This document shows, piece by piece, positions 29,150 through 36,622 of a stretch of 64,000 nucleotides of DNA. The position numbers and the translations under genes were made by a program. The first letter of the stretch is position 1. Each line of letters opens with the position of its first letter. The notes beneath the pieces are model-generated. The model saw only the letters and a program-made list of their open reading frames with translations, searched no databases and was not told where the DNA came from. The stretch covers positions 2,480,001 through 2,544,000 of the forward strand of contig OZ024741.1 in the NCBI GenBank assembly GCA_964016885.1, in the 5' to 3' direction. This stretch comes from Eledone cirrhosa (taxonomy: Eukaryota).

Positions 29150-30027
29150 CAGCTAAGTATTCTATAAGTCTCTAGCTGTGTCATTCTCGATAAAAGCACT
29201 GGATATGTAGTCCTGATGATTTCTAACAAGAATGAAACGCGTAGATTACTTCCCTTGCTTTTATCGAGAATCTAATTGTAATACGTGACGTATTCTATTC
29301 TATAGCGATTAGGTCTTCAAAATGTTTATTATAAACATACAGAATATTTTCGAATATTCTATGTCTATATTCACATATATATCGCTATTTCAGAGCATTT
29401 ATTCCAATTTCTAATTTCTGCCGGACCGGCAACCGCTCTTTCAAACCAGTTCCTGTACACAGCTAAGTATTCTATAAGTCTCTAGCTGTGTCATTCTCGA
29501 TAAAAGCACTGGATATGTAGTCCTGATGATTTCTAACAAGAATGAAACGCGTAGATTACTTCCCTTGCTTTTATCGAGAATCTAATTGTAATACGTGACG
29601 TATTCTATTCTATAGCGATTAGGTCTTCAAAATGTTTATTATAAACATACAGAATATTTTCGAATATTCTATGTCTATATTCACATATATATCGCTATTT
29701 CAGAGCATTTATTCCAATTTCTAATTTCTGCCGGACCGGCAACCGCTCTTTCAAACCAGTTCCTGTACACAGCTAAGTATTCTATAAGTCTCTAGCTGTG
29801 TCATTCTCGATAAAAGCACTGGATATGTAGTCCTGATGATTTCTAACAAGAATGAAACGCGTAGATTACTTCCCTTGCTTTTATCGAGAATCTAATTGTA
29901 ATACGTGACGTATTCTATTCTATAGCGATTAGGTCTTCAAAATGTTTATTATAAACATACAGAATATTTTCGAATATTCTATGTCTATATTCACATATAT
30001 ATCGCTATTTCAGAGCATTTATTCCAA
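29150..30027 (+). mobile_element. Retrozyme-like tandem array 1: 2.8 copies of a 310-bp non-coding monomer, one hammerhead per unit
   Basis: AGCTAAGTATTC at 29151, 29461 and 29771 (period 310); flanked by (TA)n. Confidence 0.88.
29207..29249 (+). ncRNA. Type I minimal hammerhead ribozyme; also at 29517-29559 and 29827-29869
   Basis: GTAGTC-CTGATGA-T-TTCT-aaca-AGAA-T-GAAA-CGCG-TA-GATTAC; stem I is extended by a perfect 16-bp ATTCTCGATAAAAGCA/TGCTTTTATCGAGAAT (29183-29271). Confidence 0.88.
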
Positions 30028-30348
30028 TATATATATATATATATATATATATATATATACATATATATGTTATATATTCATATATATATACATATATATA
30101 TGTTATATATTTATATATATATATATATATATATGTATATATATATATATGTATATATAAAGAATTTATATCTAGTAACATTTATATACATACAGATGCA
30201 TATCAATGCTAGCAAATATATAGGTTTTGTCTTAGTAACGTTGTGGTTCAATGCATGGGGTTGCAGAACAATAATATGAGAGACGTAAGATAAGAAAATT
30301 ATAAAATTATAAAAAGATTATAAAATTGACTTACTTACTAAAATATCA

Positions 30349-30428
30349 CTTTCAACTAATTAGTTTCTGGAATGGAGTAAATATATTTTCCGAAGATCAT
30401 GTTGAAAAGCATTCCGTCGTCAGGAAAG
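30349..30428 (-). ncRNA. Type I hammerhead ribozyme with a 10-nt palindromic stem III
   Basis: Minus strand: CTTTC-CTGACGA-C-GGAATG...CATTCC-A-GAAA-CTAATTAG-TT-GAAAG. Confidence 0.78.
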
Positions 30429-30864
30429 ACTCTTTTCGTGTAAGTTTCCAGGCATAGCGAGGAGTCTGGAAACTTATTAAAAAAATAATTCAGTGGATAG
30501 GAAATAGCGAAGCGTGGACTGAAATCCTAGCCATTGAGAAAATCACTGCCTCTACGTCTGTGGCAAATTCAAAAAGAATCAATCACGTGACATCGAGGTC
30601 AATCAGTGGAAAGCGAGTATATATATATATATATATACATATATATATATATATATATATATATACATATACATATATATATATGTAGGAGGTGAGTTTT
30701 ATTGTAGTACAATAAAGCAATGCAGATATCGGATAAGAAGCACTCTACAGTTTGTATGACTGGAGTATACATAATATATAAGATCAAAAGATTTTAAATC
30801 AACATATGTTGATTTAAAACTGCACTATCCACAAGTGTTTTTTAACCTTCATATCATGTCCTCC

Positions 30865-30935
30865 TATTTTATCTGATGAAAACACAAACGTTATTGCATG
30901 ATTATATTTGTTTTTGAAATGCGCATAATAAAATA
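30865..30935 (+). ncRNA. Type I hammerhead ribozyme (same family as 14640; element about 30803-30968)
   Basis: TATTTTAT-CTGATGA-...-GAAA-TGCGCA-TA-ATAAAATA. Confidence 0.8.
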
Positions 30936-31073
30936 CATGGAACTCATTTAACCATCTTTTGATCTTATATATATATATATATATATATATATATATATAT
31001 ATATATATATATATATATATATATATATATGAGGTTTGCGAGGTTTTTGATATGAAATCGTGTGTCGAAACAA

Positions 31074-31196
31074 ATATTGTTATACTTGGGGAGGGTTCTT
31101 ATTTGTGTAATATTGCCAGAATTAATAACAGAAGTGAGTTCTGTTATTAATTCTGGCAACATTACACAAATATGACCCTCCCCAAGTATAACAATA
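31074..31196. repeat. Hairpin with about 58-bp arms within (TA)n
   Basis: TATTGTTATACTTGGG...AATAACAGAA gtgag TTCTGTTATT...CCCAAGTATAACAATA. Confidence 0.85.
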
Positions 31197-33308: not shown

Positions 33309-33355
33309 CTTCCTGATGATTTCTTCCAAATGAAACAGATCTAGTCCTGTAGAAG
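33309..33355 (+). ncRNA. Type I hammerhead ribozyme (family of 16584-16684)
   Basis: CTTC-CTGATGA-tttcttccaaat-GAAA-CAG-atctagtc-CTG-TA-GAAG; downstream flank is homologous to 16685-16760. Confidence 0.7.
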
Positions 33356-33978
33356 CCTTTCTATATAACATATTTATACTCTGCTTTGTATTGAGTACCT
33401 TACTTACTGTGGTTTCCCCCGATTGAACACGGGATAAAGTTATATATATATATATATATATATATATATATATATATATATATATATATATATATATATA
33501 TATATATATATATATATATATATATATATATATATATATATATATATATATAGAGAGAGAGAGAGAGAGAGAGAGGTAGAACACTGGAAGGTAATATGCG
33601 TAGTGGTAGAGCACTCAGTCCATGGGACGAGTTAGCTTGTAATGGACATGGTTATAACCATGTCCATTACGAGCTGAAGATCCGCTAAGGTGAAAGCATT
33701 GTTCTCGATATCGTGAACTAACTGTTGTGTTTCCACTTATATATATATATAGAGAGAGAGAGAGCGAAGGAAATGTGATAAGGAACCAGATGGACCATAA
33801 CGCACCAAAGTACTCAATACTTAGGGTAGTAGAGTGGGTAATAGGAACGAGTAGGACCCCGACGGCTGAGCTCAAGCCGTTTCGACGGCTAATTCTGGAC
33901 TAAATGGTATTTTTATTAAATATGGATTTGAAAACCTAGGTTTTCAAATCCATATTTAATAAAAACACCACGTTTTTT

Positions 33979-34045
33979 TATTTATTCTGACGACTGAAAA
34001 CAGATATAAATATCTGCTTCCAAGAAACCACTGGTAAATGAAATA
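33979..34045 (+). ncRNA. Type I hammerhead ribozyme, preceded by a perfect palindrome at 33910-33965
   Basis: TATTTATT-CTGACGA-C-TG...CAGATAT aa ATATCTG...CA-A-GAAA-CCA c TGG-TA-AATGAAATA. Confidence 0.7.
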
Positions 34046-34125
34046 ATTATATATAGTTATATATATGCACACACACACACACACACACACACACATATAT
34101 ATATATATATATATATATATATATA

Positions 34126-35587
34126 TTGGAATAAATGCTCTGAAATAGCGATATATATGTGAATATAGACATAGAATATTCGAAAATATTCTGTATGTTT
34201 ATAATAAACATTTTGAAGACCTAATCGCTATAGAATAGAATACGTCACGTATTACAATTAGATTCTCGATAAAAGCAAGGGAAGTAATCTACGCGTTTCA
34301 TTCTTATTAGAAATCTTCAGGACTACATATCCAGTGCTTTTATCGAGAATGACACAGCTAGAGACTTATAGAATACTTAGCTGTGTACATGAACTGGTTT
34401 GAAAGAGCGGTTGCCGGTCCGGCAGAAATTAGAAATTGGAATAAATGCTCTGAAATAGCGATATATATGTGAATATAGACATAGAATATTCGAAAATATT
34501 CTGTATGTTTATAATAAACATTTTGAAGACCTAATCGCTATAGAATAGAATACGTCACGTATTACAATTAGATTCTCGATAAAAGCAAGGGAAGTAATCT
34601 ACGCGTTTCATTCTTATTAGAAATCTTCAGGACTACATATCCAGTGCTTTTATCGAGAATGACACAGCTAGAGACTTATAGAATACTTAGCTGTGTACAT
34701 GAACTGGTTTGAAAGAGCGGTTGCCGGTCCGGCAGAAATTAGAAATTGGAATAAATGCTCTGAAATAGCGATATATATGTGAATATAGACATAGAATATT
34801 CGAAAATATTCTGTATGTTTATAATAAACATTTTGAAGACCTAATCGCTATAGAATAGAATACGTCACGTATTACAATTAGATTCTCGATAAAAGCAAGG
34901 GAAGTAATCTACGCGTTTCATTCTTATTAGAAATCTTCAGGACTACATATCCAGTGCTTTTATCGAGAATGACACAGCTAGAGACTTATAGAATACTTAG
35001 CTGTGTACATGAACTGGTTTGAAAGAGCGGTTGCCGGTCCGGCAGAAATTAGAAATTGGAATAAATGCTCTGAAATAGCGATATATATGTGAATATAGAC
35101 ATAGAATATTCGAAAATATTCTGTATGTTTATAATAAACATTTTGAAGACCTAATCGCTATAGAATAGAATACGTCACGTATTACAATTAGATTCTCGAT
35201 AAAAGCAAGGGAAGTAATCTACGCGTTTCATTCTTATTAGAAATCTTCAGGACTACATATCCAGTGCTTTTATCGAGAATGACACAGCTAGAGACTTATA
35301 GAATACTTAGCTGTGTACATGAACTGGTTTGAAAGAGCGGTTGCCGGTCCGGCAGAAATTAGAAATTGGAATAAATGCTCTGAAATAGCGATATATATGT
35401 GAATATAGACATAGAATATTCGAAAATATTCTGTATGTTTATAATAAACATTTTGAAGACCTAATCGCTATAGAATAGAATACGTCACGTATTACAATTA
35501 GATTCTCGATAAAAGCAAGGGAAGTAATCTACGCGTTTCATTCTTATTAGAAATCTTCAGGACTACATATCCAGTGCTTTTATCGAG
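34126..35587 (-). mobile_element. Retrozyme-like array 2, left part: about 4.7 copies of the 310-bp monomer; HHRs at 34284-34326, 34594-34636, 34904-34946, 35214-35256 and 35524-35566
   Basis: TTGGAATAAATGC at 34126, 34436, 34746, 35056 and 35366; reverse complement of the array 1 unit. Confidence 0.9.
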
Positions 35588-36622
35588 ACGAGAATCTAAT
35601 TGTAATACGTGACGTATTCTATTCTATAGCGATTAGGTCTTCAAAATGTTTATTATAAACATACAGAATATTTTCGAATATTCTATGTCTATATTCACAT
35701 ATATATCGCTATTTCAGAGCATTTATTCCAATTTCTAATTTCTGCCGGACCGGCAACCGCTCTTTCAAACCAGTTCATGTACACAGCTAAGTATTCTATA
35801 AGTCTCTAGCTGTGTCATTCTCGATAAAAGCACTGGATATGTAGTCCTGAAGATTTCTAATAAGAATGAAACGCGTAGATTACTTCCCTTGCTTTTATCG
35901 AGAATCTAATTGTAATACGTGACGTATTCTATTCTATAGCGATTAGGTCTTCAAAATGTTTATTATAAACATACAGAATATTTTCGAATATTCTATGTCT
36001 ATATTCACATATATATCGCTATTTCAGAGCATTTATTCCAATTTCTAATTTCTGCCGGACCGGCAACCGCTCTTTCAAACCAGTTCATGTACACAGCTAA
36101 GTATTCTATAAGTCTCTAGCTGTGTCATTCTCGATAAAAGCACTGGATATGTAGTCCTGAAGATTTCTAATAAGAATGAAACGCGTAGATTACTTCCCTT
36201 GCTTTTATCGAGAATCTAATTGTAATACGTGACGTATTCTATTCTATAGCGATTAGGTCTTCAAAATGTTTATTATAAACATACAGAATATTTTCGAATA
36301 TTCTATGTCTATATTCACATATATATCGCTATTTCAGAGCATTTATTCCAATTTCTAATTTCTGCCGGACCGGCAACCGCTCTTTCAAACCAGTTCATGT
36401 ACACAGCTAAGTATTCTATAAGTCTCTAGCTGTGTCATTCTCGATAAAAGCACTGGATATGTAGTCCTGAAGATTTCTAATAAGAATGAAACGCGTAGAT
36501 TACTTCCCTTGCTTTTATCGAGAATCTAATTGTAATACGTGACGTATTCTATTCTATAGCGATTAGGTCTTCAAAATGTTTATTATAAACATACAGAATA
36601 TTTTCGAATATTCTATGTCTAT
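35588..36622 (+). mobile_element. Retrozyme-like array 2, right part: about 3.3 copies; HHRs at 35841-35883, 36151-36193 and 36461-36503 (core CTGAAGA)
   Basis: Period 310; orientation switches at ...TTTTATCGAGA CGAGAATCTAATTG. Confidence 0.9.

Follow-up and report, generated by a model that had tools for sequence, protein, structure and literature searches.

A 64,000-nt stretch of the Eledone cirrhosa genome (assembly GCA_964016885.1, contig OZ024741.1, forward-strand positions 2,480,001 to 2,544,000; hereafter the window) contains two arrays of a 310-bp monomer, which we refer to as the 310-bp family (Table 1). The units follow each other head to tail with a period of 310 bp, which lies within the 150-450 bp range of retrozymes. 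They have no coding capacity, no long terminal repeat (LTR) structure and a GC content below 50%; a primer-binding site and a polypurine tract were not searched for. As the initial annotation of this DNA had noted, no credible open reading frame (ORF) overlaps either array, and the units inside each array are identical. The same annotation had described two arrays of the monomer. The unit length was borne out, but array 2 is not one run: it consists of a minus and a plus arm that diverge head to head. Three positions differ between array 2 and array 1, and these differences are seen in every covering unit of both arms of array 2. Monomer bases are numbered from window position 29244, the first base past the predicted cleavage site of the ribozyme described below. 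On this scale, the last distinctive base of the short outer end of the plus arm lies at or before monomer base 127.

Table 1. Coordinates of the 310-bp family, its junction and its flanks in the window.
Feature	Positions	Strand	Remarks
Array 1	29150-30028	+	single-arm insertion, 2.8 units, 100% identical; 5'-truncated at monomer base ~217; ends at long end (base 165)
Hammerhead, array 1 unit 1	29207-29249	+	stem I GTAGTC/GATTAC, core CTGATGA, GAAA, palindromic stem III; repeats at +310 and +620
35-nt 'tail' (monomer 131-165)	29994-30028	+	spans short-to-long end sites; present at 3' end of array 1
(TA)n-rich target, array 1 left flank	28040-29148		
(TA)n target, array 1 right flank	30027-30159		
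(TA)n target, array 2 left flank	34095-34126		
Array 2, minus arm	34125-35588	-	4.7 units, 5 hammerheads; outer end = long site (base 165)
Array 2, head-to-head junction	35575-35593		formed between both arms of the 16-bp helix; 5-nt duplication
Array 2, plus arm	35589-~36624	+	3.4 units, 3 hammerheads; outer end = short site, no tail
(TA)n target, array 2 right flank	36625-36640		
Family B 3' fragment	36641-36739	-	ends at homologous long site; array 2 inserted in its (TA)n flank

Each unit carries one type I hammerhead with an intact core, and this holds for all 11 motifs in the window. The pattern CTGA(T/A)GA...GAAACGCGTA, of which 11 copies had been reported, is found three times in array 1, five times in the minus arm of array 2 and three times in its plus arm. 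Cleavage of the plus strand had been predicted after positions 29243, 29553, 29863, 35877, 36187 and 36497, and all six positions agree with ours; on the minus strand of array 2, cleavage is predicted after 35530, 35220, 34910, 34600 and 34290. The perfect 16-bp helix described earlier as an extension of stem I (29183-29198 paired with 29256-29271) is likewise present in every unit. Stem I comprises 6 bp; stem II has four positions, the basal one being a U-U, and carries a 6-nt loop. There is no extra base between positions 9 and 10.1. Stem III consists of 2 bp and a palindromic 2-nt loop inside the palindrome ACGCGT, and the stem III duplex between two molecules was computed at -9.5 kcal/mol. 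A hammerhead descriptor recovered the real monomer and matched 0 of 5000 dinucleotide shuffles, and folding of the monomer gave z = -4.4. In a search of the Rfam hammerhead families (clan CL00010), nothing was found at gathering score; Hammerhead_HH9 aligned at 19.2 bits, with a cut-off of 52. Judged by every feature that can be tested in DNA, the 310-bp family is a non-LTR retrozyme.

The initial annotation had referred to minimal hammerheads with a palindromic stem III, which are typical of Penelope-like elements (PLEs) and cleave as dimers. According to PMC4209133, the minimal PLE hammerhead has a helix II of 7-8 bp, a short helix I and an extra base between positions 9 and 10.1. The motif described here fits the canonical metazoan type I form of that paper instead; the dimer requirement stays. 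The canonical form is described there as weak alone and active as a dimer; thus, multimers would be cut and monomer circles would not.

The abundance of the family was determined with exact sequence patterns in the genome (3.0 Gb, 1796 contigs). A 31-nt hammerhead tag gave 9,873 exact matches (4999 and 4874 on the two strands) and its reversed control none. The family occupies at least 3 Mb, or about 0.1% of the genome, and sister families sharing its layout are at least equally abundant. Among the sequencing runs that contain the monomer, none was listed as RNA. Runs X1, X3 and X6 each yielded one contig of 340 nt (310 + 30, as expected from a tandem array or a circle alike) at a depth of 10-15, which low-level carry-over of a high-copy repeat would explain, and run X2 yielded 609 contigs with a summed depth of about 2e5; none of these runs has a bearing on expression or host range.

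For the analysis of the insertion architecture, 94 family regions were sampled, 15 via the tag list, 26 via a list of long ends, 20 as short ends without an exact long partner and 33 picked as pairs. In the sets not picked as pairs (60 regions) together with the window, 50 of 64 segments are inverted pairs and 14 are single arms, one of which ends at a region edge and one at a gap. All 82 inverted loci, from which the doubly inverted locus L080 was excluded, carry one long and one short outer end; 34 of them had been picked as such pairs and 48 had not. The same rule was observed on contig 1 between 0 and 245 Mb, where 86 long and 100 short ends were listed and all 54 diverging pairs within 20 kb combine a long with a short end (p ~5e-17 under independence). 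Both ends are fixed. Of 92 long ends, 71 lie at base 165 and the others at 166-174. Of 103 short ends, 82 lie at 130 or 139, two positions that are indistinguishable inside an ATATAT run; nine 'short ends' scored at base 144 are probably internal units. Exact ends joined to (TA)n occur 992 (long) and 1110 (short) times in the genome. Outer ends run into (TA)n in 156 of 164 cases, most loci having been found by an end-plus-TA pattern, and among the inverted loci found by the hammerhead tag alone 10 of 11 also lie in (TA)n. A target duplication of about 16 bp was read at L040, which has a non-TA target; the other loci among the 70 with both ends lie in (TA)n, where a duplication is not reliably readable. 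In non-LTR retrozymes, target-site duplications exceed 4 bp when they are present. Single-arm loci stopping at the long site, which would be predicted from a collision on a circle, gave 20 matches at 14 places, as compared to 0 for one control position, but this site has TA microhomology. Taken as sequence, these loci suggest a young repeat of the self-cleaving-RNA type that was dispersed as back-to-back arrays with consistently unequal ends.

The junctions between the arms of the 82 loci show an overlap of 1-6 nt (41 loci) or longer (16), are blunt (7) or contain an insert (18). One insert, of 271 bp at the inversion junction of L045 (4100-4370), has the same sense as the plus arm. It derives from the 5' part of a different repeat, where it precedes a frame labelled PHD-like by eye; this source repeat clusters on contig 25 at 19-24 Mb. 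The insert is as a template jump would leave it, in this one case.

Insertions of PLEs with an inverted 5'-truncated copy, an often one-sided tail of 30-40 bp and microsatellite or AT-rich targets are described in PMC8557442 and PMC3846280. The 35-nt offset between the long and short ends of the 310-bp family (monomer 131-165) is the PLE 'tail'. In vitro, the tail is delimited by two neighbouring internal sites of the RNA at which a PLE reverse transcriptase (RT) initiates; the protein, a predicted dimer, nicks and extends both strands (PMC11167929). In the same genome, the two inverted autonomous PLE copies with both ends visible (L077, L079) likewise combine a long with a short end in (TA)n; their tails measure about 60 nt. 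The head-to-head arms with long and short fixed ends in (TA)n thus tie the family to the PLE machinery, and we consider it very probable that it is a retrozyme mobilised by PLEs.

Several loci were informative on how the two arms arise. At L139, the short arm covers bases 36-139 and the long arm 155-165, neither arm lying inside the other. A variant in L153 is located 309 and 276 nt from the outer ends, which corresponds to one template position, and 1166 and 774 nt from the junction. The inner ends of paired arms lie within 25 nt of each other at 13 of 82 loci, as chance gives, and are therefore independent. Furthermore, either arm can be the longer of the two, the long-end arm exceeding its partner in 45 of 82 loci. 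Together, these observations argue against fold-back copying as the rule, and two primings on one RNA are the likely origin of the paired arms.

The nature of the template was approached through variants in the 82 loci (~745 units), with haplotypes taken from 76 of them. In 105 variant-locus cases, every covered unit of the two arms carries the variant; 99 changes affect a single unit and 9 cases are partial. The 76 loci contain 29 haplotypes, and 14 variants are private to a single locus, where all units carry them. Inner ends are not concentrated around the cleavage site (3 of 164 lie 5 nt or less from it, 5.3 expected). Thus, the RT did not run off cleaved 5' ends, and the arms read through. 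None of the 29 distinct inherited variants falls in the core or disrupts a pair, as compared to 19 of 99 single-unit changes that do (p = 0.007). All 6 inherited variants inside helices preserve pairing, and the ratio of pair-keeping to damaging variants is 6:0 for inherited variants and 3:19 for single-unit changes (p = 2e-4). A selected fold, a template that is continuous over the cut site and one sequence per event match a ligated circle, and a monomer circle is in our view the probable usual template. The initial annotation had proposed a young family copied from a 310-nt circle by rolling reverse transcription. A young non-LTR retrozyme agrees with our results and the circle fits most loci; L102 and L153 require a template of more than one unit.

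On balance we therefore favour a non-autonomous, non-LTR retrozyme that is mobilised in trans by a PLE, with both target strands primed on one RNA that usually is a monomer circle. A number of observations weigh against this interpretation. The U-U at the base of stem II replaces the G10.1-C11.1 pair and may slow the predicted ribozyme, and selection on the core alone is not significant (0/29 vs 6/99, p = 0.34). Among 34 PLE (GIY-YIG) loci, no autonomous PLE was similar to the end region of the monomer. At 4 of 82 junctions, that of the window included, both arms of the 16-bp helix are joined. Variants in L102 and L153 match in pass between the arms yet miss some units, which calls for a template of more than one unit there, and the arms of L094 disagree over four units. 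Linear multimers would give 16 pass-matched loci where 2 were seen; the expectation falls to 3.2 (p = 0.38) if the parents are young masters. The long arrays L041, L043 and L045 show later local expansion, L043 with a period-7 repeat of two variants. From the literature, PAc mainly uses unprocessed RNA and mutation of the hammerhead does not abolish insertion (PMC11167929), and 8 of 9 Xenopus retrozyme dimers were uncleaved in vitro (bioRxiv 10.64898/2026.07.22.740005).

Some of these points would suit PLE twin priming on linear transcripts that read through homogeneous master arrays and stay long and uncleaved, the fold being kept for protein binding or being active only sometimes. On such a template L102 and L153 are expected, PAc provides a precedent for the use of unprocessed RNA, and two haplotypes cover 36 of 76 loci, a pattern expected of master loci; the missing run-off at the cleavage site fits uncleaved RNA, too. 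However, the 14 single-locus variants are fixed in all units and only 2 pass-matched variants were found in about 241 shared passes. Many arms are several units long, and in 52 of 82 loci neither arm has fewer than 2 units. The hammerhead core is conserved between the 310-bp family (family A) and family B, which share ~65% identity. We hold linear transcripts to be an unlikely general template. Less probable still is a single priming after which fold-back or self-priming copies arm 1 into arm 2, according to the antisense self-priming model proposed for head-to-head PLE repeats in PMC3846280. The four junctions that link helix arms speak for it, as does an enrichment of inner ends in the 16-bp helix (32 of 164, p = 3e-4), which is partly an alignment-boundary effect. 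Against it, the inner ends are as far apart as expected by chance, and since either arm can be the longer one, neither is always the template. L139 and L153 do not agree with one arm being copied from the other, and the model leaves unexplained that the far end is always the other site. Fold-back copying is therefore improbable as the source of the second arm.

Unequal crossover or slippage could also have expanded short inserted seeds locally, with the RT contributing little tandem length. Variants repeated at intervals in L041, L043 and L045 are in line with this, and local expansion has been argued for retrozyme satellites (bioRxiv 10.64898/2026.07.22.740005). Yet most arrays show only unshared single-unit changes, one haplotype occupies all units of both arms, and outer ends are both fixed while inner ends are spread; expansion at the DNA level would not select helix-keeping variants. 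As a main source of array length it has a similarly small chance. Finally, the unit might be merely the pseudo-LTR (pLTR) of an autonomous PLE, present as truncated copies, which the initial annotation had named as the case that would overturn its proposal. The PLE end signature is present, and at L039 a minus arm faces a PLE fragment across a gap. An autonomous PLE has an RT + GIY-YIG ORF between pLTRs; the 310-bp family has head-to-tail repeats without an ORF. Of 60 family loci scanned with five PLE proteins, 6 had PLE matches and none of these continued into an arm, and the PLE at L039 has its own hammerhead and 3' end. Together with the lack of end-region similarity in the 34 PLE loci, this leaves the pLTR explanation largely refuted and very improbable. 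L047 was considered as a PLE with a monomer-like 3' end and was rejected, as the similarity stems from a separate family B insertion.

Returning to the retrozyme mobilised in trans, its life cycle could proceed as follows. Arrays would be transcribed as multimers, in which adjacent hammerheads may pair through their palindromic ACGCGU stem III and release 310-nt monomers. A host ligase would then circularise the monomer, and the monomer circle would be stable, since stem III cannot be formed by a hammerhead on its own. A PLE RT/GIY-YIG protein, probably a dimer, would bind the circle and nick both strands of the (TA)n target in which the insertions are observed. At the two observed end positions, cDNA would be primed by one nicked strand at base 165 and by the other at about base 130. 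Both RTs would circle one RNA template for a variable number of turns. The cDNA 3' ends would finally join, in the observed junctions mostly by 1-6 nt of microhomology, giving head-to-head arms of which one ends with the tail and the other without it. In single-arm loci such as array 1, only one arm would have been extended. We further propose, tentatively and with a little below even confidence, that the PLE RT-endonuclease dimer holds the 310-nt circle at sites 35 nt apart, one per nicked strand, and that simultaneous double rolling-circle priming is the general source of PLE inversions and one-sided tails. If this is true, about 1,000 near-identical loci record coupled double rolling-circle priming.

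Concerning possible partners, the genome contains 10,595 candidate GIY-YIG elements, of which 150 were scored, some with RT + GIY-YIG frames of 636-1026 aa. At L039 (G000:C1:30796100-30799600), the minus arm of the 310-bp family and a GC-rich PLE fragment on the plus strand face each other over a 200-N gap. The fragment belongs to a young PLE family with 1,097 identical hammerhead tags. The locus is a candidate chimeric insertion and a lead to the partner PLE. Further candidate proteins are those of the PLE families of L066, L068 and L069. In the window, fragments like the pLTR of the young L066 PLE family, with a long end in (TA)n, were seen by eye at about 31790-31880 and 32440-32530. The young PLE family of L066, L067 and L077 has TTGAAAA at the place of the core CUGANGA, followed by stem II, GAAA and a palindromic CCGG, and the PLE family at L039 has CCGAAGA at the hammerhead core position. 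Both may possibly be core variants, or dead ribozymes in active elements.

Family B (window 36641-36739; L106-L135) is an older sister retrozyme with units of ~307-315 bp that are 63-67% identical to the 310-bp monomer. It shares both end sites with the 310-bp family, has a stem III of 3 bp and retains the core, with compensatory changes in stem II pairs. An inverted pair of another family, D, was found at 52400-53450 of the window, with motifs at 52706 (minus) and 53150 (plus). It has the same stem II loop as the 310-bp family and a palindromic CTAG stem III. Its tag has 15,427 exact matches genome-wide, in tandem runs of ~470-540 bp and inverted pairs, and family D is probably a second, larger retrozyme family of the same layout. 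Family C (window 16581-16775 and 33280-33440; L071, L075, L078) comprises small hammerhead elements in (TA)n, one of them an inverted pair, with a core like that of the 310-bp family. Hammerhead-like motifs were further noted as an inverted pair at 7430-7900 (7592 minus, 7748 plus) and singly at 33674, and a 459-bp tandem unit with its own hammerhead-like motif in L067 (6200-6660) is a further candidate retrozyme family. Short related elements in (TA)n, several of them inverted, lie at 16430-16545, 16826-16878, 33820-33890 and 37890-38070 and are likely the ends of another PLE-type family. The remaining features of the window are decayed RT fragments, by eye like those of long interspersed nuclear elements (36740-37800, 38690-47600, 27440-28000), and tandem arrays of 17 bp, 22 bp and GGTA (53781-55368, 60567-64000 and 891-1930, respectively).

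The class to which the 310-bp family belongs and the outline of its mechanism are already known; rolling reverse transcription on circles was proposed in PMC4209133 and PMC7229834. Neither this family nor any inverted retrozyme array was described in the texts that our literature search returned, with supplements, Dfam and Repbase outside the search, so that the family may be listed there. Nor did the search return, again outside supplements and repeat databases, a retrozyme that combines PLE-type inverted arrays with a strict long-plus-short rule and with evidence on its template from the haplotypes of single loci. The metazoan non-LTR retrozymes of coral, mussel and axolotl (PMC7229834) resemble it in their tandem non-coding units of 150-450 bp with one type I hammerhead each, low GC and thousands of copies, as well as in a weak palindromic helix III, which works there as a dimer. 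The U-U pair at the base of stem II recurs in axolotl HHR_Amex2 (PMC7229834). In those animals circles were demonstrated by northern blot, whereas the 310-nt circles proposed here are deduced from DNA. In contrast to those retrozymes, two arrays diverge at the usual locus in E. cirrhosa, and their outer ends, which are fixed and unequal, lie in (TA)n; inversion, fixed ends and target are not described in the available text of PMC7229834, where the mobilising enzyme of animal retrozymes is only suggested and DNA entry is a hypothesis.

Vertebrate retrozymes (bioRxiv 10.64898/2026.07.22.740005) belong to the same class and have the same proposed PLE dependence, which is argued there from co-occurrence and pLTR similarity, while tandems are put down to local unequal crossover. 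In contrast to them, no pLTR relative was found for the 310-bp family. The available text of that preprint does not contain 'tail' or 'mollus', and its single 'inverted' belongs to the title of a reference. The one-sided tail of PLEs is described as optional (PMC8557442, PMC3846280, PMC11167929), whereas here a strict long-plus-short rule applies in inverted loci. This rule suggests how the two in vitro RT start sites (PMC11167929) could serve in vivo, one per target strand. For PLEs themselves, the steps behind tandem and inverted structures are called 'still undefined' in PMC8557442.

The 310-bp family links the entry of retrozymes into DNA with the tandem and inverted structures of PLEs, and PLE tail, target and inversion are carried here by a family without a protein of its own. 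As its start sites are known and its target is (TA)n, a 310-nt RNA of this kind would be a small substrate for direct tests of rolling-circle reverse transcription. Unlike endonuclease-bearing PLEs, the family has no RT-endonuclease ORF and has multi-unit arms on both sides. In L1 twin priming, a single RNA is likewise copied from two 3' ends of the target, and microhomology joins the cDNAs, with the RNA 3' ends outward. There, one of the primers anneals to the poly(A) tail, the position of the other varies and the arms do not overlap. In the 310-bp family, in contrast, both sites are fixed and 35 nt apart, and the two arms copy one sequence repeatedly.

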